DNA of 64,000 nt from Escherichia coli (GCF_030013205.1 NZ_CP122648.1); one strand, 5' to 3'. Positions 3,157-58,106 are shown, numbered from the stretch's first letter. Numbers and translations are program-made. Notes: generated from the sequence alone by a model not told the origin.

Positions 3157-3165
3157 GGAAAATGA

Positions 3166-3768
3166 ATGGAAGCGCGAATTTCAACTGAACGGCATGTGCA
3201 GCGCCAGCAGAAATTGAAGGAACAGGTCGATACGCGCGTCGCGGCGGCGATAGAGAAAAAAGGGATTTTGATTGTTTTCACCGGCAATGGCAAAGGGAAA
3301 TCCACTGCCGCGTTTGGTACTGTGACGCGCGCGGTGGGTCATGGCAAAACGGTGGGGGTTGCGCAGTACATCAAGGGGCAATGGGACAACGGCGAATACA
3401 ACCTTCTCCAGCCGCTGGGGGTTGAGTTTCATATTATGGGAACCGGTTTTACCTGGGAGACACAGAACCGGCAAGCGGATATCGACGCGGCGAAAGAGGT
3501 CTGGTCGGAAAGCAAACGGATGCTGGCTGACAAGCGTTACGACTTAGTGGTGCTTGATGAGCTGACCTATATGCTGGCTTACCATTATCTGGACACCGAA
3601 GAAGTGATCGCTTCTCTGCAAAACCGCCCGGCACAACAAAGTGTCATTGTCACCGGACGCGGTTGCCACAGTCAGATATTAAAAATGGCGGATACGGTCA
3701 GCGAAATCCGCCCCGTCAAACATGCTTTTGATAACGGCATTCAGGCGCAGCCGGGTATCGACTGGTAA
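3166..3768 (+). CDS. cob(I)alamin adenosyltransferase, CobA/BtuR family
   Basis: 200 aa; P-loop FTGNGKGKSTAAFG and overall similarity to remembered BtuR; 9 bp after the fumarase-like gene. Confidence 0.8.
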   Translation: MEARISTERHVQRQQKLKEQVDTRVAAAIEKKGILIVFTGNGKGKSTAAFGTVTRAVGHGKTVGVAQYIKGQWDNGEYNLLQPLGVEFHIMGTGFTWETQNRQADIDAAKEVWSESKRMLADKRYDLVVLDELTYMLAYHYLDTEEVIASLQNRPAQQSVIVTGRGCHSQILKMADTVSEIRPVKHAFDNGIQAQPGIDW

Positions 3769-3801
3769 TAACTGCGCCTGGCATCCCGCCAGGCGCAGGT
3801 T

Positions 3802-4707
3802 TTACATCTCCTGCGGTACGACCGATTTCGCCAGCAACCATTCACGAAATTGCTGCAAGTGCGGCGAGTCAGACTTCTCTTCCTGCCACGTCATAATAAA
3901 ACGATTACCGGTACGAATAGGCACATCACAGGGAATCACCATATCGCCACTATCCAAATCATGTTGAATAGCGAACCGTGGTAACAGCGCCACGCCGAGA
4001 TTAGAGCGCACGGCGGCAATCAGCATTGAAAGCAAATCGAAACGTGGTCCGTTATTGACCAGCGGACTGCTAACGCCAGATAAAGCAAACCACTCTTCCC
4101 AGCCAGTAATACGGGTGCTTTGATGCAGAAGTGGTAACTCAGTAAGCAGTTCTGCCACTGACAGTTTTTGATCGGACATTGCAAGCAAACTGCCGCTGCA
4201 TACCGGCAAAATCTCCTCATCAAAGAGATATTCTACTTCCGCCCAGGGCGCGCAAAAATTTTCGCGCATAATGACAGCATCGTACTCCCGATTAAGAAAA
4301 TCGCCGTTATTAGCTAAAGAATGAATATTAACAATAATATCGGGATGTAACTTTGTGAATTCATGTAAATTTGGGATTAACCAGTGGGTACTAAAAGTAG
4401 GATTAACGGCAAGTTCAATAACCTGAACCGTAGGCTGCCAGGTCATAATGGTATTGGTATCGCGTTCCAGCTTATTTAATGTTTCTTTTACTATCCCCAG
4501 GTAATACTTCCCTGCATCATTAAGAAAAATACGTTTTTTAGAGTGTGAAAATAACGGAGTATGTAAAAATTCCTCCAGCGCACTCACTTGTCTGAATACA
4601 GCACTTTGGGTTAACGCTAACTCCTCTGCCGCTCTGGTATAACTTTCATGACGTGCGACGACCTCAAAAGTCACCAGCAGCTCCGTTTTAGGTATTTTTC
4701 CTCGCAT
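3802..4707 (-). CDS. LysR-type transcriptional regulator
   Basis: 301 aa; N-terminal HTH ...YTRAAEELALTQSAVFRQV...; convergent with the upstream 3-gene cluster. Confidence 0.85.
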   Translation of the reverse strand: MRGKIPKTELLVTFEVVARHESYTRAAEELALTQSAVFRQVSALEEFLHTPLFSHSKKRIFLNDAGKYYLGIVKETLNKLERDTNTIMTWQPTVQVIELAVNPTFSTHWLIPNLHEFTKLHPDIIVNIHSLANNGDFLNREYDAVIMRENFCAPWAEVEYLFDEEILPVCSGSLLAMSDQKLSVAELLTELPLLHQSTRITGWEEWFALSGVSSPLVNNGPRFDLLSMLIAAVRSNLGVALLPRFAIQHDLDSGDMVIPCDVPIRTGNRFIMTWQEEKSDSPHLQQFREWLLAKSVVPQEM

Positions 4708-6241: not shown

Positions 6242-7407
6242 TATTTCCCCTCCACTGCGGCAACAACCTGCTGAGCTGCATCCGTCAGACCTTTTGCTGC
6301 AATAATATTCAGGCCGCTGTCAGCCAGTTTCTTCGCGCCGAGTTCGGCGTTGTTACCTTCCAGACGTACCACGACCGGTACGTTAACACCCACTTCCGCT
6401 ACCGCGCCAATGATACCGTCAGCGATCAGGTCGCAACGAACGATACCGCCGAAGATGTTAACCAGAACGGCTTTCACTTTGTCGTCAGAGAGGATGATTT
6501 TGAACGCTTCGGTTACACGTTCTTTGGTTGCGCCGCCGCCAACGTCCAGGAAGTTAGCTGGTTCGCCGCCGTGCAGTTTAACGATGTCCATCGTACCCAT
6601 CGCCAGACCTGCGCCGTTAACCATACAACCGATGTTACCGTCCAGCGCAACGTAGTTCAGTTCCCACTGTGCAGCTTGTGCTTCACGCGGATCTTCCTGC
6701 GACTGGTCACGCATTTCGCGCAGATCAGGCTGGCGGAACAGTGCGTTGCCATCAGCGCCCAGTTTGCCGTCGAGGCAAATCAGATCGCCCTGTTTGGTAA
6801 TGACCAGCGGGTTGATTTCGATCAGCGCCAGGTCGCGCTCCAGGAAAATGGTCGCCAGGCCCATGAAGATTTTGGTGAACTGCTGAACCAGTTTACCTTC
6901 CAGACCCAGTTTAAACGCCAGCTCGCGTCCCTGATACGGCATCGGGCCAGTCAGCGGATCAAGCGCAACTTTATGGATCAGGTGCGGAGTTTCTTCCGCC
7001 ACTTTTTCGATTTCCACGCCGCCTTCGGTGGAGGCCATAAAGACCACACGACGGGAACTACGGTCAACAACGGCACCGAGATACAGCTCTTTAGCGATAT
7101 CGGTCGCTGCTTCAACCAGAATCTGGTTAACCGGTTGGCCATTGGCATCTGTTTGATACGTTACCAGACGCTTGCCCAGCCAGTTTTCTGCAAAAGCACG
7201 GATGTCTTCTTTGCTGTTTACCACTTTCACACCGCCCGCTTTACCGCGGCCACCAGCGTGAACCTGACATTTCACTACCCACGGACCGGCACCGATTTTT
7301 GAAGCGGCTTCTTCTGCTTCGCGCGGAGTAGTACAGGCATAACCCACCGGTGCTGGTAAGCCATAGCGGGCAAAAAGTTGTTTTGCCTGATATTCATGTA
7401 AGTTCAT
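6241..7407 (-). CDS. sucC: succinyl-CoA synthetase beta subunit
   Basis: 388 aa [18 protein letters not shown]... Confidence 0.97.
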
Positions 7408-7500
7408 GTGTTCTGTCCATCCTTCAGTAATCGTTATCTTTTAAACCGTAGACCGACACCCTATCCACGTCGGTCTACAGTGCAGGTGAAGCTTAAACTA

Positions 7501-8718
7501 CTACACGTCCAGCAGCAGACGAGTCGGATCTTCCAGCAACTCTTTGATCGTTACCAGGAAGCCCACGGATTCGCGACCATCGATCAGACGGTGATCGTAG
7601 GACAGCGCCAGGTACATCATCGGCAGGATCTCAACCTGACCATTCACCGCCATCGGACGATCTTTGATAGCGTGCATACCCAGAATTGCGCTCTGCGGCG
7701 GGTTGATGATCGGCGTAGACATCAGGGAACCGAACACACCACCATTGGTGATGGTGAAGTTACCACCGGTCAGATCTTCAACCGTCAGCTTGCCGTCACG
7801 GCCTTTAACTGCCAGCTCTTTGATTTTCTTCTCGATGTCTGCCATGCCTAGGGTATCGACATCACGCAGTACCGGCGTCACCAGGCCGCGCGGCGTAGAA
7901 ACCGCCATGCTGACGTCGAAATAGTTGTGGTAAACCACATCATCGCCGTCGATAGAAGCATTCACTTCCGGGTAACGTTTCAGGGCTTCAACCACCGCTT
8001 TCACGTAGAAGGACATAAAGCCCAGACGGATGCCGTGGCGTTTTTCAAACGCTTCACCGTACTGCTTACGCAGATCCATAATCGGCTTCATATTGACTTC
8101 GTTGAACGTGGTCAGCATGGCGGTGGAGTTTTTCGCTTCCAGCAGACGCTCTGCCACACGCTTACGCAGGCGAGTCATCGGGACACGTTTTTCGCTACGT
8201 GCAGCCAGAGCCGGTTGCGCCGCCGGAGCAGCCGCTGCCGGAGCAGACTCTTTCGCCGGGGCTTTCGCCAGATGTTTTTCCACATCTTCACGAGTCAGAC
8301 GACCACCCACACCGGTGCCTTTAATGGCGCTGGCGTCGAGGTTGTGTTCAGCCAGCAGGCGACGGATCGCCGGGCTTAACGCATCGTTGTTTTGCTCTTC
8401 CAGAGACGCCTGCTGGCGTTGCGCCGGAGTGGACGCTTTCTCTTCAGATTTGGCGCTGGTTTCTTTACCCGCGCTGTTGCCTTCACGCAGGCGACCAAGG
8501 ATCTGACGAGACGTTACCGTTGTACCTTCATCTTCCAGAACCGCATCCAGAATGCCGTCTGCTGATGCCGGTACTTCCAGTACCACTTTGTCAGTTTCGA
8601 TTTCTACCAGCACTTCATCACGTACGACTGCGTCGCCGGGTTTTTTATGCCAGGTTGCGACGGTGGCATCGGCTACGGATTCAGGCAGGTCAGGGACCAG
8701 AATATCTACGCTACTCAT
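7501..8718 (-). CDS. sucB: 2-oxoglutarate dehydrogenase E2 (dihydrolipoyl succinyltransferase)
   Basis: 405 aa; lipoyl domain, Ala/Pro linker, catalytic domain. Confidence 0.97.
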
Positions 8719-8732
8719 TGTGTATCCTTTAT

Positions 8733-11534
8733 TTATTCGACGTTCAGCGCGTCATTAACCAGATCTTGTTGCTGTTTCTGGTGAACGGACATATACCCTA
8801 CCGCCGGAGAGGCGGAGGCCGGGCGGCCTGCATAACGCAGAGAAGCCCCAAACGGAATCACTTCACGGAAATGATGCTGGCTGCAGTACCATGCGCCCTG
8901 GTTGAGCGGCTCTTCCTGGCACCAGACAAAATCCTTGACGTGAGCAAACTGCTGCAACACTTCCTGCATCGCTTTATGCGGGAACGGGTAGAGTTGCTCG
9001 ATACGCACAATGGCGACATCGTGTTGATTGTTCTTACGACGTTGTTCCAGCAGGTCGTAATAAACCTTACCAGAACACATCACTACACGCTTAACACCCT
9101 TCGGATCAAGCTCGTCGATTTCACCGATGGCTGGCAGGAAGGTGCCGTTCGCCAGTTCTTCGAGGCTGGATACCGCCAGCGGATGACGCAGCAGGGATTT
9201 CGGCGACATCACGACCAGTGGACGACGCATCCCGCGCAACGCCTGACGACGCAGCATGTGGTAAACCTGTGCCGGGGTAGACGGTACGCACACCTGCATG
9301 TTTTGCTCAGCGCAAAGTTGCAGATAACGTTCCAGACGCGCGGAGGAGTGCTCCGGTCCCTGCCCTTCGTAACCGTGCGGCAGCAACATCACCAGGCCAC
9401 ACATCCGGCCCCATTTCTGCTCGCCAGAGGAGATGAACTGGTCGATAACCACCTGAGCACCGTTGGCGAAGTCACCGAATTGCGCTTCCCAGATGGTCAG
9501 GGTGCGTGGTTCTGCGGTGGCATAACCGTATTCAAACGCCAGCACGGCTTCTTCTGACAGTACGGAGTCCCAGACACGGAACGCGCCCTGACCGTTATGG
9601 ATGTGTTGCAGCGGCGTGTAAGTGGAACCGTTAGACTGGTTGTGGATCACCGCGTGGCGGTGGAAGAAGGTACCGCGACCGGAGTCTTCACCCGACAGGC
9701 GAACCGGAATGCCTTCATCAACCAGCGTGGCGTAAGCGAGGTTTTCCGCGCCGCCCCAGTCGAACAGTTTCTCACCGGCAGCCATCGCCTGGCGATCGCC
9801 ATAAATCTTGGCAACGCGAGACTGCATTTCAACTGCTTCCGGCACCGTACTGATGCGTTTAGCCAGTTCCTGCAGGCGCTTCATCTCAACTTTGTTCGGG
9901 TACTCTTCGTCCCATTCGTGGTTGAGGTATGGCGACCAGGTGAAAGAGTGCATGTTCATCGGACGCCACTCTGCCACTACGCAATCGCCAGCATCCAGCG
10001 CATCGCGGTACAGGTTAACCATCTCGGTGGCATCTTCCAGTGTCGCGACTTTTTCCTGCTCCAGCTTGTCAGCGTAGATTTTGCGCGGCGTCGGATGTTT
10101 TTTGATTTTCTGATACATCAGCGGCTGGGTTGCGCTCGGCTCGTCGGCTTCGTTGTGGCCATGACGGCGGTAGCACACCAGGTCGATGAAGACATCACGT
10201 TTAAAGGTGTTACGGAAATCGAGCGCCAGACGGGTCACAAAGGCAACGGCTTCCGGATCATCCGCGTTAACGTGGAAAATCGGTGCCTGAACCATCTTAC
10301 CGATATCAGTACAGTACGGCGTCGAACGGGCATCCAGCGGGTTAGAGGTGGTGAAGCCAACCTGGTTGTTGATAACGATACGTACCGTACCGCCAACTTC
10401 ATAGCCACGCGCTTTCGACATGTTCAGGGTTTCCTGAACCACGCCCTGCCCGGTCACTGCGGCGTCACCGTGGATGGTAATTGGCAGCACTTTGTTGCTG
10501 CTCGGCTCATCAAGTCTGTCCAGACGGGCACGAACAGAACCGATAACTACCGGGCTTACAATCTCAAGGTGAGACGGGTTAAACGCCAGCGCCAGGTGCA
10601 CCAGGCCGCCATCGGTCTGGAAGTCAGACGAGAAGCCCATGTGGTATTTCACGTCGCCCGTGCCGAGGTGTTCTTTATGTTTACCGGCAAACTCGTCGAA
10701 CAAGTCTTGCGGTTTTTTACCCAGCACGTTCACCAGCACGTTCAGACGACCACGGTGCGCCATCCCGAGAACCACTTCGCGGGTGCCGCTGTTGCCAGCG
10801 TGGCGGATCATCTCTTTAAGCATCGGGATTAACGCGTCACCGCCTTCCAGCGAGAAGCGTTTTGCGCCAGGGAATTTTGCGCCGAGGTAACGTTCAAGGC
10901 CTTCAGCGGCGGTCAGTTCGCTTAAGAAGCGTTTTTTCTCTTCGCTATTGAAAGTCGCGCGACCAGACTCGATACGCTGTTGGATCCAGCGTTTTTCTTC
11001 GGTGCTGGTAATATGCATATACTCGGCACCAATCGGGCCGCAGTAGGTTTGCTTGAGGGCTTCCAGCAGTTCGCCGAGTTTCATGGTTTCTTTGCCGCTG
11101 GCAAATGAACCGACGTTGAAGGTCTCCTGGAAGTCTGCTTCGGTCAGATCGTGGAAAGACGGATCCAGATCGGCCACTTTATCTTGCTGCCACAGTCCCA
11201 GCGGATCGAGATTCGCATGCTGGTGACCACGGAAGCGGTATGCGTTAATGAGCTGCAGGACTTTAACCTGCTTCACATTGGTGTCAGGGTCGGAGATCGT
11301 TGAAGAGTAACGTGAAGCGTCTTTCGCCAGGCGGCGGAAATATTCACGCGTTTGAGAGTGGAATTGATCCGGTTTGACTCCCGTACCAGGTAACTGCTGG
11401 AACGTCGAACGCCAGTTAGCGTCAACCGAGTCAGGATCGGTTAAGAAGTCTTCATAGAGCTGTTCTATCCAGCTCTGGTTTGCGCCAGAGAGGTAAGAAG
11501 AGTCCAACCAGGCTTTCAAAGCGCTGTTCTGCAT
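8733..11534 (-). CDS. sucA: 2-oxoglutarate dehydrogenase E1
   Basis: 933 aa [17 protein letters not shown]... Confidence 0.97.
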
Positions 11535-29118: not shown

Positions 29119-30532
29119 CTCCTTTCCTCGCTTCTTCGTACGCTGCCAGCGTTCGCAGCCTTGCCTCTTTGTGATCAACTATCGGTTGCGGATAATCCAG
29201 CGTCACACCTGCTTTCTGCGCCCACTTCCACGGCTCATGCACCACTTTCCCTGGCACATCGCGCAGTTCCGGTAGCCACTGGCGGATAAACTCGCCTTCG
29301 CGGTCAAATTTCTCGCCCTGGGTTGTCGGGTTAAAAATACGAAAATACGGCGCTGCATCGGTTCCGGTTGAAGCGGCCCACTGCCAGCCACCGTTATTAG
29401 CTGCCAAATCACCATCAATCAGCTGCGACATGAAATATCGCTCGCCTTCGCGCCAGTCGATCAATAAATCTTTCACCAGAAAACTGGCTGTAATCATCCG
29501 TAGCCTGTTATGCATCCAGCCAGTGCTGTTAAGCTGACGCATGGCAGCATCGACAATCGGGTATCCCGTTTTGCCTTCCTGCCAGGCCTGTAAATGTGCG
29601 GGATTGCTCTGCCACTGCACACGATCCGTCCAGGCAATAAACGGACAATGTTTACACAACGAGGGGTAATACGTCATCAGATGACGGTAGAACTCGCGCC
29701 AGATCAGCTCACTAAGCCAGACACTACCGGCCCCACCGTCCAGCGCCTGCGGCTGTTCCGCCAACAAGCGATGCAAACACTGGCGAGGCGATAACCCGCC
29801 CGTTGCCAGGCTGGCGGACAAACGACTGGTGCCTTCCACTGCCGGAAAATCTCGTTGTTGCTCATATTCTCCGGCACCGTTCTGGCAAAACTGGCGTAAT
29901 TGCGCAATCGCCGCTTTCTCTTCCACCGGGAAATGCGCAGTATCGAAAGGCTGACGAGGATAATTCAGCGTAATGGATGGCGCGGGCTTTATCGATCCGC
30001 TACTACGAACTTTTGGCGCAGCGACGCACTCCGGCATCCCTTCCCGCAGCCGTTTCAGCCAGGCGTTTTTAAACGGCGTAAAGACTTTGTACATCTCATG
30101 ATTGCCAGTCATCACCGCCCCCGGCGGCAGGATCACGCTGTCGTCAAATCCTTCACACACCACGTTACGCAGCGTTCTCTCAACCTGCGCATCCCGCGCC
30201 CGCTCATTCACCTCATACTGATAGTTATAAAACAGATGGGTAACACGATTTTCCGCGCACACCTGTTTAACTATTTCGACGCTGGCGACAAAGTCATCCA
30301 CTTCATGAAACAGCAAAGGAATGCCTTTTTCCGCCAGCGCGATTTGTAGCCCATTCAGTTGAGCATTGATAAGTTCAGCCTGACGCGGCGACACATTATG
30401 CGCCGCCCACTGGCGTGGGGTAGCGATATACAACGCCAGCACGCGCACAGACGAATTGCGGCAGGCGGCAGCCAGCGCGAGATTATCGTGCTGACGTAAA
30501 TCCTGGCGAAACCAGACCAGATGGGTAGTCAT
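29114..30532 (-). CDS. phr: deoxyribodipyrimidine photolyase
   Basis: 472 aa MTTHLVWFRQDLRQHDNLALAAA... Confidence 0.96.
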   Translation of the reverse strand: MTTHLVWFRQDLRQHDNLALAAACRNSSVRVLALYIATPRQWAAHNVSPRQAELINAQLNGLQIALAEKGIPLLFHEVDDFVASVEIVKQVCAENRVTHLFYNYQYEVNERARDAQVERTLRNVVCEGFDDSVILPPGAVMTGNHEMYKVFTPFKNAWLKRLREGMPECVAAPKVRSSGSIKPAPSITLNYPRQPFDTAHFPVEEKAAIAQLRQFCQNGAGEYEQQRDFPAVEGTSRLSASLATGGLSPRQCLHRLLAEQPQALDGGAGSVWLSELIWREFYRHLMTYYPSLCKHCPFIAWTDRVQWQSNPAHLQAWQEGKTGYPIVDAAMRQLNSTGWMHNRLRMITASFLVKDLLIDWREGERYFMSQLIDGDLAANNGGWQWAASTGTDAAPYFRIFNPTTQGEKFDREGEFIRQWLPELRDVPGKVVHEPWKWAQKAGVTLDYPQPIVDHKEARLRTLAAYEEARKGA

Positions 30533-31038
30533 AAAACTCCTGCATGGCGCAAGTTAATCACACGCGGCCAAAGTTCGAAATAACGCTGCTCTGAAAGCCA
30601 GGCGTCAGGATAAAACGCCATATAGTGTTTGATACGCATCAGCAGCGCAAGAAGCGGTTGCTCGCCACGGCGATAACTGTCGATAAGCGCCGCCAGCTGC
30701 TGGCGTTCTGTGGAATCAATATGTGGGCGAAAATATCCCTGAACGTGCATCAAAACGTTAGTATGATCACGCCGGTTGGCAGGGTGAGAAAGCAAAACAA
30801 TTACGCGTTGGCGGTACTGGTTGTAATAGTCATCCAGATTTTGCCACTGGTGAATATCAGCCACAAACGGGCCAAGTTTGCGGTACTCCGGCTGGGAATG
30901 GGCCAGAAAGACGAGTTTATAGCGGCTGTGATAATCGTTGAGTGCCCCGCGCGTTAAGCCATGTTCTTTCAGTCGATGTAACTCATGAAGGGCGAAGATA
31001 CGGATTAGGGTGCTGTCATCAAATCGTTGCTGATTCAT
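30529..31038 (-). CDS. ybgA: DUF1722 protein cotranscribed with phr
   Basis: 169 aa; 4-bp overlap with phr. Confidence 0.85.
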   Translation of the reverse strand: MNQQRFDDSTLIRIFALHELHRLKEHGLTRGALNDYHSRYKLVFLAHSQPEYRKLGPFVADIHQWQNLDDYYNQYRQRVIVLLSHPANRRDHTNVLMHVQGYFRPHIDSTERQQLAALIDSYRRGEQPLLALLMRIKHYMAFYPDAWLSEQRYFELWPRVINLRHAGVL

Positions 31039-31109: not shown

Positions 31110-32095
31110 GTAGCAGGGCAAGATTACGAAAGCCCGCTCCCCGCAAGGACTGACGTCAGGTAGTTTCTGTCCATGGCTGCCCTTTCCATTCAAACGTGAA
31201 ATCAATAAGTTCATCAGGGACATCGCAAACAATATGAAGACGGATTTCTTCTCTGCCGTGACTTTTTTCACTAATTGCGTAACTGTCATGCTCTGGATTA
31301 TTTAATTCTTTCAGTGGGAATTTTTCCTCAAAGGCTTTATTAAGCCGCCCCTGATTTCCTTTTACAGCGAATAAATAATCACCGCCCTGTTTTTGTATCT
31401 TCTCTGCGATATCTTTCTGGCAACCCATCGCATCAGTTGTGATAATTTTTCCTTTAATATCCAGCATGTTAAGAAGTTCAGGGATAGCTGTGATCTCATT
31501 GGATTTCTTATCCGTCCTGATCTGTCCGATGACAAGACTGTGCATTGTTGAGAACGCACTAATGACATGAATCGCTCCCCTGCGGCGACTCTTGTCATAA
31601 GAATGCCGGAGCGTTTTTCCATCAATTGCAATAACGTCTTTATCATCTGAAGAATGGCAGTCACGCATCCAGTTAATAAAGCACTCGTGAAATTTTGAAG
31701 GACTGATACAGGATACAACTCTGGCGATGGTATCGTGAACAGGAATACCATTTTAAAAATCACCATATTGTTTTAAAAAATCGAGATGTGTTTCCCCAAA
31801 ATCCTCTATATCTTCCCAACCGTCTGCACAAGAAATAACGGCACAAATAGTCAACAGTAGAATATCCGACAATTTATGTTCCACTTTCCTGGCATGTCTG
31901 TAATCGGAAGTAATAGAAATATGTTCCATCAATTTTTTAAGTTCCATTTTGTTCTCCTTAATTATGTAAGGAGTATTTGATCATGTATAAGCAATAAAAA
32001 AGAGCTTCAGGTAATGAGGAATATCTCAATTTTTAAACATAAAATGCGAATTGTTTAGTACAAAAAAGCAGCGTTACGTGATCTTTCCCTGGTGA
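31110..32095 (-). mobile_element. H-repeat (ISAs1-family) element copy 1, degenerate
   Basis: terminal sequences shared with copy 2 (gcagggNaagattacgaaagcccgc at one end, gatctttccc at the other); internal deletion of about 385 bp plus a TAA nonsense codon. Confidence 0.8.
31156..31947 (-). pseudogene. H-repeat-associated (ISAs1-type) transposase, disrupted
   Basis: ORF track fragments 31753..31947 and 31156..31668 same frame; ...YGDF then TAA where copy 2 has GAA; C-terminus replaced after FTFEWKG by deletion. Confidence 0.8.
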
Positions 32096-32545
32096 CAGTC
32101 ACGGCAGCGGAATCGATCATGTCCTTTTGGGTTCTTCCCGTGACGGTAAACCTGAACGGACTGGCAACGGGGGCAATGAAGGTTAACAGTGACCATGAAG
32201 GAACCTTAAAAGCGAGTATTATACCACTCATTCAACTAATTGGAGGCATTACCCATCCCTTTTAACACGATCTTTTCCATATAAAACAGGAATAAGTTGC
32301 TCCATGTTGTAATTTTTATATTTTTCATGCAAAAACAACTCCCTGCTTTCTTTTCGTCTTTTATTCACATCAATAATTTTCATATCAACTATCTCATTTT
32401 CTTTGCTATCTTATCTTTTGAATGGCGTGAATGCTTGCCCCCCATGCTTTCATTGTGCTTTTTGCCTCTAACGGTGAATATTTACCTTGTGAAATTAATT
32501 CCTCAAGCATCTCACATCTGCTCTAGTAAAGAAATAGTTCATATT

Positions 32546-32995
32546 CTATAGTTTAATGACCTCGCCAAGCTTACCCCCCTCATCGGCATAAAAAGCACTC
32601 AAATACAGATCACCCTTATTTTCTTTTGTAAACTCAAATTCCTCTATTAGAGAGTAATGTTCATATGTAGAGCGATAGGTTAAAACCACAACATTATGAT
32701 TAATTACATTACTCGCCAATAAGTTTATTTTATTTAATCTTCCAAACACCTGTTTTTTTTCTTTCATTATCGTTATAAAAACATCTTCCGATGTTGCTTT
32801 TTTAAATTCACTGCTTGTGTCAGAGTAGATTTTGTCCACTTCATTCTGATTGTATAGTTTTTGAATGATAACAACTTTATCCTGCGCAATTTTTCTAATA
32901 TCAGCATCATTCTTTATTACATTATGACTAATGTCTTTCCCCAAAAACATAAAAACCACTACTGCTACAATAACAATACTCACTTTTATTTTCAT
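32546..32995 (-). CDS. candidate immunity protein for orphan Rhs tip 2; N-terminal signal peptide or membrane anchor
   Basis: 149 aa, MKIKVSIVIVAVVVFMFLG hydrophobic N-terminus; AT-rich; start 4 bp from upstream toxin stop. Confidence 0.55.
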   Translation of the reverse strand: MKIKVSIVIVAVVVFMFLGKDISHNVIKNDADIRKIAQDKVVIIQKLYNQNEVDKIYSDTSSEFKKATSEDVFITIMKEKKQVFGRLNKINLLASNVINHNVVVLTYRSTYEHYSLIEEFEFTKENKGDLYLSAFYADEGGKLGEVIKL

Positions 32996-32998
32996 AAA

Positions 32999-33780
32999 TT
33001 AATATCCTGCCAATTGTGATAAACACCATAAACTTTGCGAACAGGTAAGTTCGCCAACAAAACCACCAAATCCGGGACCAATACTCACTGTGCCTGAATT
33101 TTTTCCGTCTGCATCCCTAACCCCTGCAATGGAATATTTTTTCAAATAACCACCTGTAGATATATAACCTTTAGTAAGATACTCCCCCGGAGAGATTTTT
33201 GCTTGCGATGCTGTACCTGACAAAGAAATACCGATTGCAGAACCAACACCATTATGTTCACACAAAGTATAATACATACAAACATCCAGATTAGCTGGAG
33301 CTCTGTCATTCCCCCCAACTGTTGCTCCCACAGCAAAACTAGCCCCTGTAAATTCGTCACCATTAAAACTTATATCAATAGATCCTGAACCAGGGAAAGG
33401 AGTAGTATAAATTTTAGAAGTCACATCCGAAGGAGCGTTATTATTATACATAGAGTTATTCATAAATTCGCCCCAATTGCTATATAATCCCAAAGCATCT
33501 GTGTATGCAACAGGATTCAACGGATACTGATAAAAATTCCATCCCCACTTCAGCCCAATCGGATCATGAGTGATATACCGCCCCTGCAGCGGGTCATAAT
33601 AGCGGTGGCGGTTGTAATACAGGCCGGACTCCTCATCATACTGCTGCCCCGGCAGGCGGACAAGCTGCTGCAGCTGATGCGGGTTCTCTTCATTCAGCAG
33701 GTTGCCCCACTCATCGTATTCTGCGCACCATTCTGTTGCCCCTTCCGTGCTGATAAGCGCCAGCGGCAGGTTATTCGGTT
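32999..33780 (-). CDS. orphan Rhs C-terminal tip 2 (core-end remnant plus glycine-rich toxin domain), no ATG/GTG start
   Basis: minus-strand frame open from about 33780 to stop at 32999; encodes ...[73 protein letters not shown]...[13 protein letters not shown] then a divergent 160-aa domain; ORF track lists the TTG-initiated part 32999..33520. Confidence 0.75.
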
Positions 33781-33893
33781 TGCGTCGTTGAGTTCACTAC
33801 ACTAAAACTCCGTGCCCATATAACCCAAGTCGGAGGCATGCCTTCCTCTGGTTCGTTCCATCTAAAATGTCTATACATAACATGGTTATTCAA

Positions 33894-34286
33894 TTATTTT
33901 TCTTTGAATTTATTCTCAATCCAGCTGTCTTTATACCTGATGAAAATTTGACACTCACCAATATTATCAATGCCTCCAGAATTTGTATTTGGAATTTGTC
34001 CAACTGCAACTATAGTTGATTCAAAATATTCAACATTGACATTATCTGTAATTATTGAAATTATATAATCATCTGGAATAGAGCCATTAGGAGTTATATT
34101 GAAGAAACTAACACCTGAAAATACCAAATAACCATCTTCTAAGTCTTCATTATCATAAAAATTCCATTCTGTTGTACCATAGGCTATCCTTGAGATTAAA
34201 TTAACCTGAATTCTAATTTGTTTACTCCATAAATCAAATTCAATTTTTTTTATTGCTCGATCACCAAGATATATTCTATCAAACAT
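33894..34286 (-). CDS. candidate immunity protein for orphan Rhs tip 1 (cytoplasmic)
   Basis: 130 aa, no signal peptide, AT-rich, starts 14 bp after upstream toxin stop. Confidence 0.55.
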   Translation of the reverse strand: MFDRIYLGDRAIKKIEFDLWSKQIRIQVNLISRIAYGTTEWNFYDNEDLEDGYLVFSGVSFFNITPNGSIPDDYIISIITDNVNVEYFESTIVAVGQIPNTNSGGIDNIGECQIFIRYKDSWIENKFKEK

Positions 34287-34300
34287 ATTATCCCCCTATT

Positions 34301-35203
34301 CTAAAAATACTCAGGCATTCCGCACATTATATCAGCCTCATCTTGATTGCTTCCCGTTGACATTTCAACATACATAGCATAATAACATTGTCCAAACGTT
34401 CCCTCTCTACATGATCTAAGTGTAAACATATGTAAAACAGAACTAAAAAAGCTTAGTGTACCGAGTGATCTAATACCGATATGTGCGGCACTACTATTCC
34501 ATGGTACAACGCGACCATTAACATCAAGGGATGGACCTTGGCCTTTCATACCGCTACCTGTTCCTGGTAAATGTGCATGTGCATGTGGTGTTGAATTGTT
34601 TGCATGCCCTATTGGATTAAGCCTATAAGCATTTGAATTATTCTGATAAAGAGTGTGAGTATCTGCACTTCCTGGATTACTGGGGGGATACGGGATTGTT
34701 CTGCCACCTACCGGTTCAACCATAATATTGCCTTTAGAATCACCTATAAACCTACCAACAGGTTGTTGAGTTATAGGATCAATAGTACAGGATTGACTTA
34801 CAGGTTTTTGTCTGGGAGAAGGTAATGATAATAGATCTAATCCCAAAGGGTCTATATACTGAACCGGATTCAACGGATACTGATAAAAATTCCATCCCCC
34901 CTTCAGTCCAATCGGATCCTGAGTGATATACCGCCCCTGCAGCGGGTCATAATAGCGGTGGCGGTTGTAATAGAGGCCGGACTCCTCATCATACTGCTGA
35001 CCCGGCAGGCGGATGAGCTGCTGCAGTTGATGCGGGTTCTCTTCATTCAGCAGGTTGCCCCACTCATCGTATTCTGCGCACCATTCTGTTGCCCCTTCCG
35101 TGCTGATAAGCGCCAGCGGCAGGCCGCGATGGTCGCAGTGGTACAGGTGGATTTTTCGCGCCGGCGTGTACACCGGGTCCATCTGGTTTTGCATCTGCGT
35201 CAC
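34301..35203 (-). CDS. orphan Rhs C-terminal tip 1 (core-end remnant plus unclassified toxin domain)
   Basis: 300 aa; first about 115 residues near-identical to rhsC core end up to [13 protein letters not shown], then unique 185 aa; begins with GTG exactly at H-repeat copy 2 boundary. Confidence 0.75.
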
Positions 35204-35204
35204 C

Positions 35205-36495
35205 GCAGGGAAAGATTACGAAAGCCCGCTCCCAGCAAGGACTGACGCCAGATAGTTTCTGTCCATGGCTGCTTTTCGCATCTTACGTCTTAACCCTGCC
35301 TTGAATACCTTATCATTCGTCAAAATATTAATAGCAATGTGCCGTATCCCTGAAAATAATTCTGCTGCATTTCCTCTTCTTATTTTGCAGTCGTCTTCAT
35401 TCATTACCACGTCCAGACGCCAGTGCAGCTTATTCTCCACGTGCCAGTGGTTTCGGATTGCTGTGGCGAACTTTTCTGCGGTTAAATCAGCAGAACTGAT
35501 ATAATATCTGACCGTCATTTCTGGCTCTTTCTTTTGTTCTGCTATTATTGACCGAAAGGAGACTGCCACGCATAATTTCTTCATTCCTTTCCATTCAAAC
35601 GTGAAATCAATAAGTTCATCAGGGACATCGCAAACAATGTGAAGACGGATTTCTTCTTTGCCGTGACTCTTTTCACTTATTTCGTAACTGTCATGCTTTG
35701 GATTATTTAATTCTTTCAGCGGAAATTTTCCCTCAAAGGCTTTATTTAGTCGTCCCTGATTTCCTTTTACAGCGAATACATAATCACCGCCCTGTTTTTG
35801 TATCTTCTCTGCAATATCTTTCTGGCAACCCATCGCATCAGTTGTGATGATTTTTCCTTTAATATCCAACATGTTAAGAAGTTCAGGGATAGCTGTGATT
35901 TCATTGGATTTCTCATCCGTCCTGATCTGTCCGATGACCAGACTGTGCATTGTTGAGAACGCACTAATGACATGAATCGCTCCCCTGCGGCGACTCTTGT
36001 CATAAGAATGCCGGAGCGTTTTTCCATCAATTGCAATAACGTCTTTATCATCTGAAGAATGGCAGTCACGCATCCAGTTAATAAAGCACTCGTGAAATTT
36101 TGCAGGACTGATACAGGATACAACTCTGGCAATGGTATCGTGAACAGGAATACCATTTTCAAAATCACCATATTGCTTCAAAAAATCGAGATGTGTTTCC
36201 CCAAAATCCTCTATATCTTCCCAGCATTCTGCACCAGAAATAACGGCACAAATAGTCAACAGTAGAATATCCGACAATTTATGTTCCACTTTCCAGGCTT
36301 GTCTTTAATCGAGGATAATAGAAATATGTTCCATCAATTTTTTAAGTTCCATTTTGTTCTACTTAATTATGTAAGGAGTATTTGATCATGTATACGCAAT
36401 AAAAAACAGCTTCAGGTAATGAGGAATATCTCAATTTTTAAACATAAAATGCGAATTACTTAGTACAAAAAAGCAGCGTTACGTGATCTTTCCCT
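35205..36495 (-). mobile_element. H-repeat (ISAs1-family) element copy 2
   Basis: about 1.3 kb; same terminal sequences as copy 1; same orientation as copy 1. Confidence 0.8.
35216..36360 (-). pseudogene. H-repeat-associated transposase with in-frame TAA at codon 15 (remaining ORF 357 aa)
   Basis: [19 protein letters not shown], then ORF track 35216..36289 from a GTG; N-terminal segment carries several substitutions relative to copy 1. Confidence 0.7.
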
Positions 36496-36692
36496 GGGGC
36501 TTTAACTTCCCTTTATTCATAAACTCATGGATATGGTGATCAACGGTGGTCTGATGGAGGCGCAGAGCCTGAGTAATCATGACTGAATTTCAGCCTTCAG
36601 AAGCCAGAAAAATGGCTTTAATACAATCGCAGCCCCGCTTTTCACAACATTATGCTTATAATATGAAAAATATCTTGCCTTGCATCTTTGTG

Positions 36693-37171
36693 CCTACGGC
36701 ATTGGATGATCTTTCCCTAACCTTATAGTTTCTTTTAGCCTTTCAAGCCTTAGCAATTCAACCTCGGCTTTAATATAGCCATGTGAGGCAGCCATTTTCA
36801 GCCAATTAATTGCATTATCTAAATTATAATATTTTAAATAGGAATCATCCTCCTCTGAGGATAGAATCATAGCATAATTATATTGCGCTATGATATTTCC
36901 TTGAGATGCAGACCTTGCCAGATATTTAATTTGCTTGGGTATATTAAAGCAAACATATGTATAATATTGATGTAATCGATATGACGCATCACCATCCCCG
37001 CCCTCAGATTTAATATCAAGTTCATATCTTTGATTTTTACTTAAATTAAACGATTCAGATGTTGAGCTTATTTCAATGTTATGGAGCTTAATAGGGGGGG
37101 GATTTCACCTCCATATGAACAACAAGAGAAAAAGAAAACATTTGCAATCAGAATAAATAAAAAGCACTTCA
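36693..37171 (-). pseudogene. frameshifted small lipoprotein with Sel1-like repeats; candidate rhsC cognate immunity gene
   Basis: ATG about 14 bp after rhsC stop; MKCFLFILIANVFFFSCCSYGGEI then an 8-nt homopolymer (G8 on + strand, about 37093-37100) shifts frame; with 9 nt the ORF reads about 155 aa. Confidence 0.6.
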
Positions 37172-37185
37172 TGTTGCCACCTTTG

Positions 37186-40100
37186 TTATTTTATATCACT
37201 TGGTCTCATAACTTTGCCAGGAGTGGAAGAAATGGGTTGACCTGAAGGTCCAAACGTTATCCAGCGGCCCATATTATTACCAGTTATGACATTATTACTT
37301 GTGTCAATTGCCGAGATATTATCCGTAAGTCCTGTTTGGATCGTATTAAAAAGAGGAGTATTATTATCCCACGCCATCCATACTTGCCATTGTGTATCAG
37401 CTCCAGTGACATTTGCATGAAGTGCTCTGGCTAACTTGCTGGCAAAAGATTTATTTCCCTCTCTGGCTGTACCACATGAGAATAACCAAACAGACATTCC
37501 CTTTTTATAGCGTGGATTAGCTCTGATTCTCTTGGCTAATCCCTCAGCGGTCTCATAATTTCCACTTTCATCTGTAATAAAACCAGGATATCCATGTCCT
37601 CCAATAGTAAAAACGCCAGGAATATTTATTTTATCTGTTGCAGCATGCAGTGATACATTTCTGCGTAGACTCTCATCATAGAAATTCATATCAGCTAATC
37701 CAAAAGGGTCTATATACTGAACCGGATTTAACGGGTACTGATAAAAATTCCATCCCCCCTTCTGCCCAATCGGATCCTGAGTGATATACCGCCCCTGCAG
37801 CGGGTCATAATAGCGGTGGCGGTTGTAATAGAGGCCGGACTCCTCATCATACTGCTGACCCGGCAGGCGGATGAGCTGCTGCAGCTGGTGCGGGTTCTCT
37901 TCATTCAGCAGGTTGCCCCATTCATCGTATTCTGCGCACCATTCTGTTGCCCCTTCCGTGCTGATAAGCGCCAGCGGCAGGCCGCGATGGTCGCAGTGGT
38001 ACAGGTGGATTTTTCGCGCCGGCGTGTACACCGGGTCTATCTGGTTTTGCATCTGCTCCACTGTCAGGCCGCACGATGCCAGCCAGCGGCGGCTTTCCTC
38101 ACTCACCCGGTCAGCCAGGATTTCACTTTCCAGCCGATCGAGCATCTGTACCAGCACCGGCGGGAACACCACACTGCCACCGTCTTCACCGCCGGACTGC
38201 TGAAGGGCATCCGCTAGGCTGCGGCGCTGCGTTTTCGCCAGCTCACCGGTGGCGGTTTCGACCCTGATGAGTGGCGTGAAGCTCCCCGGCTGATAAACCG
38301 TCTGGATGCGGGTTCTGTCGTTCTGTATTGTGGTCAGCCGGTCGCCGTCCCAGCCGTACCAGGTCACTTCCGGTTTCCGTGACAGCGACATCCAGCCCGT
38401 CAGGTCCCGTTCACGCCGCCACACCCGTTTTGCCACCCTGCGGCCCAGCGGGTCGTAAAGATAGCGGCTTTCAACCAGCGGCTCTGCATATTGTGTCCGC
38501 GTGTAGTGCACCAGCCGGTGCCGGCTGTCGTAATGGTACCGGTGAGTCCGCTCATCATCCGTGCGGATAACCCCTTCCGGGATGAGGTCGGTTTTCTCCG
38601 TCAGCCTGCCGTGACGGTCATACCGGTAAAGATAGTGCGCGTCACGGGCGATACGGTTATCCGGCCACATGCTGAGGGTGCTGTCCGGGTGCAGCTCCGG
38701 GTCGGGCAGGCGGTTGCCCGCCGGGTCCGTGGCATACGGGATGCGGATATCCAGATTCGCTGCGGTGGTGTGGACGCCGGTCAGCCTGCCGGTGTCGCTG
38801 TAGCTGTAACTCCGGGTCTGGCGCGGGCTGCTGATGCGGATGAGTTCGCCGTTGTCGTTCCAGGTGTAATCGCGGTCATACTGCAGGCTGTTCAGGTGCT
38901 GGCTCTGTAACTGCCCGGCAGGGGTGTAAGCGGTGGTGAGTTCATAACGGCCGAAGCTGCGCAGCGTTTCCCGGTGCAGGCGGTCGCGGGTGTACTCCAC
39001 CAGCGGTGTGTCGCCGAGTTTCATGCCTGACAGCCAGCCGCTGCCGTAGGTCAGCCATTCCACGGCGGGCAGGCTGTCCGGTATACAGCGGTTCGCCAGT
39101 CCCTGCGTGTTGTAAGCGTGTCTGGTTTCATGCTGCCAGAGCAGTGCTTCCGTCTGCGGATGATGCACCGTCTGGCGCTCACCGGTCAGGCGGCCTTTCT
39201 CATCATACCCGTAATGCACCGTCACCCGGTGGCCTTCGCTGAGATGGCTGATGCCTGTCAGCCAGCCGCGTTCGTCATACTGCCACTGCTCTGCAGGTTC
39301 ACCCTTCACGGTGCGGTGAGTGAGGCGGTCTGCTTCGTCATAGTGCCAGTGGGTGACCAGCCCCTCATCCTCGCTGCGGATAAGTTTACCGGTCAGGTCG
39401 TGGTGATAACGCTGTGTGCGGCCGTCAAAGCCGGTTTCCTGTATCAGCCGGTCGAGTACATCGTAACGGAAGGTGGTGTGGCTGCCGTTTTCACTGGTCA
39501 GGCGGATGACCCGTCCGGCAGCATCGTATTCCATACTGCGCGTCAGACCGCCCTGTGTGGTACGGATGGCCTTTCCCCACGCATCGTACTGTGTCCCGTT
39601 TCTGCTGCCGTCCGGGGCAATGACGGCGGTCAGGTCACCGGCGGCGTTGTATTCATACCGCGTTTCATGGCCCTGCGTGTCTTTCACCGCAATTAACTGT
39701 CCACGGCTGTCGTATGCGCGGTACTGACTCAGCCCTTCCTCGCGGTGCACCGCCGTCACCTGACCAAAACGGTCATGGTCATAACGGGTTACATAACCGG
39801 AACAGTCAGTGACGGTCAGCAACTGACCGTAACGGCTCCATGTCATGGTTTTCCGGCTGCCGGTGGCATCTTCCGTTGCGCAGGGTAAGTCACTGTGTGG
39901 ATTATCATAACGGTAGCGGGTGATATCGCCGTTGTGTGCGGTTTCCTGAATCAGACGGCCGGATTCATCATATTTGCGGCGCAACTCCAGCCCGTCAGTC
40001 CCGGTGGCTGACGTTAACTGGTTGTGGTGGTTATAGTAAAATGCCGATGCCCTGCCATCCGGTGTGGTGATGCGCGTGATGAGTCCCGTCACCACATCCG

Positions 40101-41436
40101 GGCTGTACTCAGTCGTCCGGCCTGCGGCATCCGTCTGTGCCTTAAGCCCACCCACCGCGTCAAACTGACTCTGCGTGACGCTGCCGTCCGCGTGTTCCTT
40201 TTTCACCACCCGCTTCAGCCCGCCTTCGCCCTGCGTGTGCAGCACTTCACGGCGGTCCAGACTGTCGGTGATGGTGATGCGGTCTTTCTCATACTGATAC
40301 GTGTAGCTTAAGCCTGCCGGGTTTAGCTGTTCTGTCACCCGCCCGTCGCTGTCGTAACGGTAACGGATTTCCGGCCGGCCCGTGTGACGGTGCGCCACCA
40401 TCCGGCCCCGGTATTTATCATCGTAAGTAAAGCTGCGCACCTGTGTATTGCTGCGGTCATACACCGCCGCCAGTTCGCCGCGTGGCGTCCAGCCATAGCG
40501 CACCAGCGGCGCGGCAGGTAAATTCTCCGGGTATTCCGGGTCGTGCGTCAGCCACACGGCAGACAGACGGATGCCGTTGTCCCGGCCATATTCGGTGTAA
40601 CCCGGCAGGGTATCAGGAAAAGCGGACGGTTCCGTCCCGCCGGAAATGGCCTGCTGCCGGGCCTCTTCTGCCCGCAGCGCCTGCGTGGTCAGTACCAGCC
40701 GGAAGTGACGCCCGGCACCATCCGTCACGCCGGTGATTTCGCCGCTGAATTCGCCGCCAGCCTCACGGTGGAACGTCTGTGTGCGCCCGAAGCGGTCCAC
40801 CAGCCCGGTCAGTACCCGGTACGGCGGCAGCGGCGCAGACAGCACCTCATCCGCCTCCGGCACCCGCTCACACCAGCCGAGTACCCACCACGGCCCCTGC
40901 GGACTGTTCGTCGCCAGATAACGATGCGGACTCAGGCGAAGCTCTTCCGGCAGCGCCTGCCAGAGTGCGGCCAGCCGGTGACCTTCATCCAGTTTCGCCA
41001 CGCCGCCGCGCACCAGCCAGAGTGACTCGCTGCGGCTGTAACCGTCCTCACCGGGAAACAGGTGCTCAAAATACAGGCTTCTGCCGCCGTTATCACTGAG
41101 TATCAGTGTGTTATCGCGCAGCTGTAAGCGGATATCCGCAGGCATTTTCCAGCCGGGGCCGAGGCTCCCCACCGGCGCGGGCGTTTTTGTCCGGTAACTG
41201 CTGTAGGTGCGGGAGAGGATGAACGGCAGCGGGCCGGGCAGGGCAAGGTCGGTTTCGCCGGGAAGGACCTTCGCACCGAGCAGCGGATTGACCGGATGGC
41301 CGGACGTCACCCCGCCGGGGCACACCGAACAGGCCACGCCGGTGGGGGCACCAATACGTACCCCGGCTGAACCCTGAACAATGCTACCGCCATACTGCGT
41401 CATGTCGCCCTGACGCGCCGCCGGTTTTCCGCTCAT
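37186..41436 (-). CDS. rhsC: Rhs family protein, rhsC-type: N-terminal PAAR-like region, YD-repeat core, DPxGL boundary, variable C-terminal toxin domain
   Basis: 1416 aa; [30 protein letters not shown]-terminus, YD repeats, [13 protein letters not shown] then unique 170-aa tip. Confidence 0.95.
37701..38057 (-). repeat. rhs core 3'-end segment repeated at 34843-35203 and about 33515-33770
   Basis: near-identical nucleotide stretches read directly in all three places. Confidence 0.85.
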
Positions 41437-41624
41437 CTGCTCATCCTTGTTTTATCGGGTTATTTGTCTGCTGACAGGCGAAACCCTACAGATTTATAAG
41501 AAAGCCTTAAGTGAGATATCTGTCAGATAAGAACAATTAGGAAAATATTTATATATATTTCATGAATATATGTTTCGATTGGTATAACGGTGTCTAAATA
41601 TTCCTCTGAACATCTTCCTGATAC

Positions 41625-41658
41625 AAAAAAAACCGCCAGCGTTTCCGCTGGCGGTTTT
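41625..41658 (-). terminator. bidirectional intrinsic terminator downstream of ybfA
   Basis: A8-ccgccagcg-tttc-cgctggcgg-T4. Confidence 0.75.
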
Positions 41659-57359: not shown

Positions 57360-58060
57360 CCGGCATAGCCGGAGGTTTTTCAAATGCGCCTATAAGGCTC
57401 TCTTACCAGCCGCGCCCTAACAGGCGCACACGATCTGACATTTGCATCCAACTTCGTTACTTACGGCCCGTAAACGGGCTGCCCGGATAGGGAATCGATA
57501 ACTGCTCTCCCATTTTATCCTCTTCAAGCTGGTGCTTTATGTAATCCTGTATCTTCGCCGTGTTCTTACCCACCGTATCGACGTAGTACCCTCTGCACCA
57601 GAACTCTCTGTTCCTGTATTTGAATTTCAAATCACCAAACTGCTCGTAAAGCATCAGACTGCTTTTCCCTTTCAGATATCCCATAAAGCCGGATACGCTC
57701 ATTTTGGGCGGGATCTCCACAAGCATATGGATATGATCTGCACAGCATTCAGCTTCAAGAATCCGTACGCTTTTCCACTCACACAGCTTTCTCAAAATAC
57801 TGCCTATTGCTCTACGCTTCTCTCTGTAGAACACTTGTCTTCGGTATTTTGGCGCAAAAACTATGTGATATTTACAGTTCCATCGGGTGTGCGCTAAGCT
57901 CTTTTCGTTCCCCATTGGGACCCCCTTTTGATTTCTTGTTTGACACTTGCAGTTGCCAGACCGCAAGGTGTTTTAACAAATCAAAAGGGGTTTTAATAAC
58001 TGGCTCAAAGCTGAAAGCTTTCCGGAACCCCCAGCCTAGCTGGGGGTTTTCTGTGCACAA
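57360..58060 (-). mobile_element. IS200 (IS200/IS605 family)
   Basis: Y1 transposase ORF; perfect hairpin cccccagc-cta-gctggggg at 58028-58046 near the tnpA-proximal end; span estimated from canonical about 0.7-kb length. Confidence 0.8.
57457..57915 (-). CDS. tnpA: IS200 transposase TnpA (HUH/Y1)
   Basis: ORF track 57457..57966; start MGNEKSLAHTRWNCKYHIVFAPKYRR (152 aa); HIHMLVEIPP HuH motif. Confidence 0.93.
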   Translation of the reverse strand: MGNEKSLAHTRWNCKYHIVFAPKYRRQVFYREKRRAIGSILRKLCEWKSVRILEAECCADHIHMLVEIPPKMSVSGFMGYLKGKSSLMLYEQFGDLKFKYRNREFWCRGYYVDTVGKNTAKIQDYIKHQLEEDKMGEQLSIPYPGSPFTGRK

Positions 58061-58086
58061 AAAAACGCCGCAGAGCGCGGCGTTTT
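58061..58086 (-). terminator. intrinsic terminator after glnS
   Basis: A5-cgccgc-agagc-gcggcg-T4. Confidence 0.75.
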
Positions 58087-58106
58087 GGATTGTTTGCATG
58101 TTTCAT

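Follow-up and report, generated by a model that had tools for sequence, protein, structure and literature searches.

Two decayed copies of the H-repeat (H-rpt), an insertion sequence (IS)-like element, bracket a 3.1-kb block of orphan Rhs cassettes at the rhsC locus of Escherichia coli. They are found in a 64,000-nt stretch of chromosome (GCF_030013205.1, NZ_CP122648.1), which is called the window here. Very probably the two copies now act as 0.9 kb of directly repeated homology, and RecA-type recombination between them deletes the cassette block. Such a deletion occurred at least once in the clone, in strain CFSAN018748, and probably once more in the ancestry of strain KE55 and its like. As we reconstruct the locus, an incoming module (core end, toxin tip, sel1, IS630 fragment and H-rpt) would have been placed before the resident rhsC tip, so that the old tip and a further orphan would have been left stranded between two H-rpts. 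The elements would no longer be transposons here and would serve as homology instead. A RecA-type exchange between the copies would then remove 4,405 bp, equal to the 3.1-kb cassette block plus one H-rpt equivalent. One chimeric H-rpt would be left, and the excised circle would be lost.

The locus is rhsC, with kdpF-ybfA-rhsC on one side and ybgA-phrB-dtpD on the other, in the orientation opposite to that of the K-12 map. The 13 kb around the H-rpt pair are 100% identical to swine E. coli chromosomes (K_EC180 and a series of enterotoxigenic E. coli (ETEC) isolates), and to judge from this identity the window represents the rhsC locus of a pig-associated E. coli clone. On the copy 1 side the conserved chromosomal flank is ybgA (30529..31038, minus strand), placed by the RefSeq annotation of K_EC180 and the list of open reading frames (ORFs).

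Self-comparison of the 64-kb window found exactly two H-rpt copies, in the same orientation and with their transposase frames on the minus strand. Copy 1 (31113..32092, minus strand) is 980 bp in length; both of its ends are present, and it is 313 bp short. Copy 2 (35205..36497, minus strand) is full length, 1,291-1,293 bp, and an end at 36495 is equally defensible. The copies align over 68 bp at 94.1% identity and over 912 bp at 95.6% identity (40 mismatches), and chance cannot matter for a match of the latter kind. They share 14 identical tracts of 25 bp or more, up to a maximum of 163 bp. Both copies keep their terminal inverted repeats, with a perfect 11-bp end (CAGGGAAAGAT). The inverted arms of copy 2, at 35203-35230 and 36472-36499, are 79% complementary over 28 nt. 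When searched with the NCBIfam ISAs1 transposase model NF033564 (cutoff 70 bits), the copy 2 ORF scored 410.5 bits and the copy 1 fragments scored 193 and 34 bits. An ORF of ~378 amino acids above the curated cutoff, a length of ~1.29 kb and short imperfect terminal inverted repeats make the copies ISAs1-family H-rpt/ISEc1 elements, and they are decayed. No target-site duplication was found at either copy, all four flanks being unrelated. This speaks against an undisturbed simple insertion for either copy; membership of the family is not contradicted by it.

Neither copy is predicted to encode an intact transposase. In copy 1, TAA stands for GAA at 31753-31755 (E65*). An internal deletion of exactly 313 bp, which corresponds to 35273-35585 of copy 2 and has its junction at 31180|31181, destroys the frame after residue 256. 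The frame terminates 7 codons on, and residues 257-378 (122 of the 378) are gone, among them ~90 residues of the catalytic domain as delimited by Pfam. In copy 2, a 378-codon ORF runs from the ATG at 36352 to 35216. Its sole defect is Y16*, a change of TAC to TAA at 36305-36307 (codon 16), inside a patch of substitutions at 36295-36315. Pfam placed DDE_Tnp_1_assoc at residues 8-94 and DDE_Tnp_1 at residues 102-343 of the copy 2 transposase, and both Y16* and E65* lie inside the N-terminal domain. These results bear out a preliminary description of this DNA, which had reported two H-repeats of one family in the same orientation, the GAA to TAA change and loss of the C-terminus in copy 1, and in copy 2 a TAA amid a cluster of substitutions that leaves no uninterrupted full-length transposase. 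Its figures needed correction in two places: the deletion of copy 1 had been put at about 385 bp, which is off by ~70 bp, and the stop of copy 2 at codon 15. That the RhsC element contains H-repeats, and that these are defective and resemble insertion sequences, has long been known.

Copy 2 is less certainly dead than copy 1, and the word damaged is weaker for it, because a GTG at codon 22 opens a 357-amino-acid ORF that still covers the whole family model (positions 1-314 of 314, at 410 bits). A restart at this GTG might give a working, or partly working, transposase, and enzymatic movement or rearrangement would then be possible. Y16* is the only lesion of the gene, and it is old enough to be shared with the KE55-type loci described below, yet no further lesion has appeared in 362 codons. 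We nevertheless regard an active copy 2 as unlikely. The stop and restart remove residues 8-21 of DDE_Tnp_1_assoc, no convincing ribosome-binding site lies ahead of the GTG, and the Prokaryotic Genome Annotation Pipeline annotates the gene as a pseudogene. The codon differences between copy 1 and copy 2 comprise 16 synonymous and 16 non-synonymous changes, so that constraint is not strong. The rearrangement that is documented in this clone bears the signature of a homologous exchange within the element and not of an event at its ends.

The population survey covered 5,426 complete E. coli genomes. The joint between H-rpt and the IS630 fragment was found at rhsC in 22 of them; 17 have two H-rpt copies, and in the other five ybgA and the IS630 fragment are separated by a single H-rpt. 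All 17 two-copy genomes come from pigs or wild boar. Among the single-copy genomes, CFSAN018748 (swine, Denmark) has the order ybgA, one H-rpt, IS630 fragment, sel1 and rhsC. Left of 35586, all 7 informative positions of its H-rpt show the copy 1 allele, and the 313-bp deletion is present. From 35639 rightward the element carries copy 2 alleles at 39 of 40 sites, Y16* included. The switch falls inside the 53-bp identical tract 31181-31233, and length bookkeeping gives a loss of exactly 4,405 bp, the offset between the two copies. The preliminary description had suggested that population data be examined for deletions with endpoints in the two copies, and CFSAN018748, with its crossover in this tract, is such a case. 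It had also called the block prone to deletion or duplication. The deletion is borne out by the chimera; the duplication variant was not seen.

A deletion and a Campbell-type insertion leave mirror-image alleles, and the polarity of the event therefore had to be read from independent markers. The 53-kb flanks of the window, CFSAN018748, EC556 and O139:H1 W13-16 are no more than about 30 single-nucleotide polymorphisms (SNPs) apart. One flank SNP joins CFSAN018748 with EC556, and there are no conflicting SNPs. An IS200C copy at window positions 41624-41632, in the rhsC/ybfA interval, is common to CFSAN018748 and the two-copy strains EC556, EC571 and EC581, and the same site is empty in K-12, KE55, AST215, O157 and strain 7/2. 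This places CFSAN018748 within a group of two-copy strains and makes the event a deletion. The opposite course, in which the single-copy chimera is ancestral and a circle with one H-rpt and the cassettes integrated by a single crossover, would fit the SNP alleles within H-rpt equally well, and these alone cannot discriminate. It is nonetheless very unlikely, since the IS200C and the flank SNP make CFSAN018748 a sister of two-copy strains within the clone, such a circle must itself derive from a two-copy locus, and the cassettes are native to the rhsC locus in strain AST215. The alleles of K-12 H-rptC3 and AST215 in the right half of copy 1 were also tried as a guide to polarity and were uninformative; 14 alleles there are private to the swine lineage. 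A further IS200C copy, at window ~57400-58100 in the chiP/glnS interval, is annotated in CFSAN018748, EC556 and W13-16 and aligns to the window gap-free. It is therefore common to the whole clone, unlike the rhsC-adjacent IS200C.

Repeats are classic sites of misassembly, and the single copy of CFSAN018748 might reflect collapse of two 95%-identical repeats during assembly in place of a natural deletion. The genome also has 25 private differences in 53 kb, which is an excess, and a frameshifted LysR gene. Against this, the element shows a single clean switch within the 53-bp tract and no blurring of the consensus (copy 2 alleles at all but one of the 40 sites), and the chromosome is recorded as closed. 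Four independently sequenced genomes (KE55, NRZ14408, OW967178 and LT599825) contain a single chimeric H-rpt of a similar kind. We consider a collapsed assembly highly improbable.

In these four human isolates, the single H-rpt carries the 313-bp deletion together with three copy-2-specific alleles, one of which is Y16*. Copy-1-specific alleles stand at 35720, 35723, 35813 and 35849, and the change to copy-2-like alleles falls within 35850-35869. Between KE55 and the window, 6 positions differ over 35860-37660 (1.8 kb), and the ybgA side and the kdp side of KE55 are 2-3% diverged. The near-identity starts inside the H-rpt (~31321, counted along copy 1) and stops within the rhs core. With moderate confidence, the KE55-type locus is probably the result of a second deletion, with a different crossover, in a window-like ancestor, followed by horizontal transfer with endpoints in H-rpt and core.

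Several points weigh against this account of the locus as a whole. CFSAN018748 is the only genome that documents a recent deletion, and a collapsed assembly keeps a small residual probability there. The cassette block is kept by 17 of the 18 members of the clone, and the word prone may overstate how often it is lost. Neither a duplication variant nor an excised-circle joint was found in the 5,426 genomes. The KE55-type allele pattern is symmetric for a deletion and the reverse event, and it includes mosaic sites at 35753, 35900, 36226 and 36361. The enzyme system would be host homologous recombination, and its dependence on RecA is assumed. Exchange between homeologous sequences is limited by mismatch repair, and a divergence of 4.4% should lower it well below the level expected of identical repeats.

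The locus offers a second recombination substrate. The rhsC core segment at 37695..38056 (minus strand) is a direct repeat of 34837-35198 in the core stub of the proximal orphan, with 97.5% identity over 362 bp; a related repeat lies at 33484-33783. The 2,858 bp lost by exchange between the first two segments would take in copy 2, the IS630 fragment, sel1 and the current tip, and the product would be an AST215-like gene with the old tip. No recent exchange of this kind was found in the 5,426 genomes.

The locus is also accumulating IS damage. ISCro1 (IS66 family) is inserted inside copy 1 (~31860-31868) in EC556, EC571 and EC581, and IS1 is inserted in the DUF3887 gene (~32887-32894) in O139:H1. 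ETEC1701, ETEC6333 and ETEC6334 have an IS1-sized insertion somewhere inside the cassette block. An apparent inversion in EC581 that breaks in copy 1 (78% opposite-strand coverage) was rejected, as annotation shows it to be the ISCro1 insertion shared with EC556 and EC571.

The history of copy 1 can be followed into K-12. The gene order in MG1655 is ybfC, ybfQ, ybfL, ybfD, ybgA, and BLAST found three head-to-tail H-rpt pieces by ybgA, namely a 381-bp right-end partial, a full-length element and the 313-bp-deleted ybfD. This annotation and the BLAST result agree with the preliminary description, which had placed H-repeat sequence in K-12 on the ybgA side only. Copy 1 and K-12 H-rptC3 align continuously across the shared 313-bp deletion junction and on through ybgA and phr. 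On this alignment copy 1 can be identified as the ybfD orthologue, an old and widely conserved ybgA-proximal H-rpt. In O157:H7 EDL933, the slot next to ybgA holds a full-length H-rpt with an internal stop (locus positions 2795-3931); even the ybgA-proximal slot therefore varies between lineages. In strain 7/2 and many human isolates, the 313-bp-deleted H-rpt directly abuts an Rhs orphan (7/2 locus positions 9282-10741). No two of the layouts examined have the same neighbour at the right end of the ybgA-proximal H-rpt.

The origin of copy 2 was approached through AST215, a human isolate. At the same locus this strain has ybgA, the deleted H-rpt, an IS256 sequence at the position of the window's IS1 fragment, the same small ORF and two tip/immunity pairs. 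Its cassette block runs uninterrupted into an intact 4,278-nt rhsC. It follows that the 300-codon orphan at 34301-35203 of the window was once the end of an older rhsC allele and has been displaced. The joint between core and H-rpt at 35204/35205 is confined to the 17 two-copy genomes among those surveyed. The module consisting of core end, tip, sel1, IS630 fragment and the right end of H-rpt occurs in 257 genomes, ~235 of them at the rhsB locus and 22 at rhsC. At rhsB the module is the last orphan, in the interval from nikR-rhsB to yhhJ, and is collinear with window 35966-38176 (strain 746 locus positions 8479-10677). KE55-type genomes carry the module at two places. The distribution of the module suggests exchange between Rhs loci.

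Both H-rpts are thus best taken as recombination joints and not as simple insertions. On the simplest reading, copy 2 is the joint where the incoming tip/sel1 module displaced the older rhsC tip, and the displacement is bounded by H-rpt. The left end of copy 2 meets a truncated core, and this could reflect transposition into the core with later homologous replacement, or else resolution of a cointegrate within the core. No precursor that would show a simple insertion, an H-rpt at this site flanked left and right by rhs core, was found in the genomes surveyed. The H-rpt of the rhsB locus was tried as the source of Y16* and its linked alleles in copy 2 and was rejected, strain 746 being without them. 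The IS630 joint is shared with rhsB, but Y16* postdates the arrival of the module at rhsC. The only other place where core and H-rpt are neighbours is an RhsF-type locus (yiiX-rpmE) in ~59 genomes, where the joint is 219 bp away. In ETEC6335, an ISEc1/H-rpt lies in yiiX-rpmE (locus positions 6405-9108) between a 393-nt N-terminal and a 1,035-nt C-terminal rhs fragment, and most of the gene is gone; here too an H-rpt stands where an rhs core is truncated.

Transposition of the two H-rpts and the cassettes into the rhsC locus as one composite mobile unit is scarcely credible and already largely refuted: although an IS pair of one family with intact terminal inverted repeats does bracket a 3.1-kb cargo, the outer flanks have no matching direct repeats (GTTAATCCTGTTGTA against GGCTTTAACTTCCCT), copy 1 is orthologous to K-12 ybfD together with its ybgA joint and its 313-bp deletion, the cargo is resident sequence that, in the corresponding position of AST215, runs on into an intact rhsC, the unit sits at one locus in 17 clonal genomes and nowhere else in the 5,426, both transposase genes have stops and that of copy 1 is minus the C-terminal third of its DDE domain, and H-rpt transposition has never been observed according to the E. 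coli W genome paper (PMC3032704).

The cassette block between the two H-rpts consists of two orphans with their putative immunity genes and some smaller features, each on the minus strand. An IS1 fragment (32093..32242), annotated as IS1 family transposase, partial, adjoins the right end of copy 1. The small hypothetical ORF WP_001389504.1 (32249..32383) marks the distal end of the cassettes. A DUF3887 protein (32546..32995; RefSeq annotation) is the putative immunity gene of the distal orphan tip, a role suggested by its position. The distal orphan (32999..33783) is an Rhs core fragment at ~33485-33783 fused to a variable tip ORF at 32999-33520. Its core stub belongs to the direct-repeat family D1, and the orphan is annotated as RHS repeat-associated core domain, partial, plus a hypothetical protein. 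A gene for a DUF6258 protein (33894..34286; annotation) is the putative immunity gene of the proximal orphan, and in AST215 and O55:H7 the same gene immediately follows full-length Rhs genes. Neither the DUF6258 nor the DUF3887 ORF had NCBIfam matches; both follow their tips in a position and orientation apt for putative immunity genes. The proximal orphan (34301..35203) comprises the last 300 codons of the older rhsC, of A-type, and the left end of copy 2 truncates it at 35204. It matches RHS_core positions 1141-1261 of 1261 and TIGR03696 in NCBIfam, and RHS in Pfam. Both orphans carry a core-end fragment fused to a variable tip, and elsewhere the proximal tip ends a full-length rhs gene, at the same locus in AST215 and at another locus in O55:H7 and others. 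The GC content of the tips is 35-37%, against 62% for the core.

On the other side of copy 2, an IS630-family fragment (36500..36628, minus strand; annotation) is joined to its right end. It is followed by the sel1-repeat gene (36694..37174, minus strand), the putative immunity gene for the current rhsC tip, which is frameshifted by a G8 tract at 37094-37101. The main rhsC gene (37186..41436, minus strand) encodes 1,416 amino acids and has the current C-terminal tip, of B-type. The poly-G tract, near the 5′ end of sel1, varies among near-identical strains. G8 is found in the window and 8 other strains; sel1 is frameshifted there and lacks an annotation. EC556, EC571, EC581, ETEC1748, ETEC4070, ETEC4071 and the rhsB locus of strain 746 have G9, and this form gives an intact 159-amino-acid protein with a lipoprotein-like N-terminus. 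Further strains have G7 or G10 and use an alternative start. In EC556, sel1 is in frame and rhsC is annotated as frameshifted. The variation could be phase variation or homopolymer sequencing error. Within rhsC, the 1.4-kb core stretch 39108-40531 holds ~30 of the 39 rhsC-side differences between the window and CFSAN018748, whose 53-kb flanks differ by ~0.05%. This cluster looks like gene conversion from another rhs core, and EC556 shows a comparable number.

The window and CFSAN018748 form a natural before/after pair, within one clone, for IS-mediated loss of Rhs orphan toxin and immunity genes. The pair shows that long-dead H-repeats continue to influence which toxin/immunity pairs an E. coli strain retains. 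Loss of the block removes two putative orphan immunity genes and, possibly, protection against neighbours that deploy those tips. The genome instability is of an ordinary kind, and the understanding of how such elements work is unchanged; the value lies in a documented example and in a system that can be tested by PCR. No description of two H-rpts bracketing Rhs orphans was found in the literature searched. A mobilome preprint that mentions Rhs and ISAs1 found no circular DNA from these regions in K-12, which is uninformative here.

The closest known arrangement is that of the RhsC element of K-12, whose H-rptC1-C3 (ybfQ, ybfL and ybfD) were reportedly described by Hill and co-workers (J Bacteriol 1993). 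The two share the locus, the family, the 313-bp deletion, the ybgA joint, the single orientation and the defectiveness of all copies. In K-12, however, the H-rpt pieces are contiguous and all distal to the cassettes, whereas in the window a full-length copy lies between the main tip module and the orphans, so that the pair brackets 3.1 kb of cassettes. Copy 1 of the window also carries E65* beyond the features of K-12 H-rptC3. Deletion between directly repeated IS copies is textbook knowledge, and the mechanism and the product, one hybrid IS, are the same here; the copies of the window are unusually diverged (4.4%) and both are pseudogenised. In Salmonella Typhimurium, the main rhs gene is said to recombine with an orphan (Koskiniemi et al., PLoS Genet 2014). 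There too, direct repeats in an Rhs locus delete the intervening tip and immunity genes and alter the repertoire. In that case the repeats are rhs core and an orphan toxin is activated, whereas in the window the repeats are insertion sequences and orphans are discarded. The core-core route is open in the window as well, but was not seen in the population.

An H-repeat is also found exactly where blocks of different ancestry meet in the O-antigen cluster of Salmonella enterica group D2, as an H-repeat remnant at the D1/E junction (PMC3715488). In the published model for D2, the H-repeat transposes to give a cointegrate, and homologous recombination between homologous genes on the flanks then resolves it (PMC3715488). 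The same model would also yield the copy 2 joint, with rhs core as the flanking homology, and its cointegrate step is hypothetical in both systems. The window differs from the D2 cluster in locus and cargo, in having a second H-rpt nearby and in the later homologous deletion that is documented. The C-terminal displacement model of Jackson et al. 2009 (PMC2935791) resembles the window in that the main rhs gene has acquired a new tip and immunity gene at its end, and its former tip, together with a core stub, is pushed downstream as an orphan. That paper invokes core homology only, and H-rpt, transposases and insertion sequences are unmentioned (PMC2935791). In the window, by comparison, the distal boundary of the module is an H-rpt. 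H-repeats, which current models of Rhs diversification ignore, thus appear to mark the outer boundary of exchanged tip modules, although these data give hints of this only. It is possible, if rather doubtful as a whole, that H-rpts form a second portable homology arm beside the rhs core and move modules of tip and immunity gene between loci and strains. Such a scenario would join passage of the module from rhsB to rhsC, an unresolved intermediate, represented by the window, that still keeps its displaced old tips, later trimming by recombination between the two H-rpts, and horizontal transfer of the trimmed module to the KE55 lineage with endpoints in H-rpt and core. If this were true, an IS-dependent step would be added to the C-terminal displacement model.

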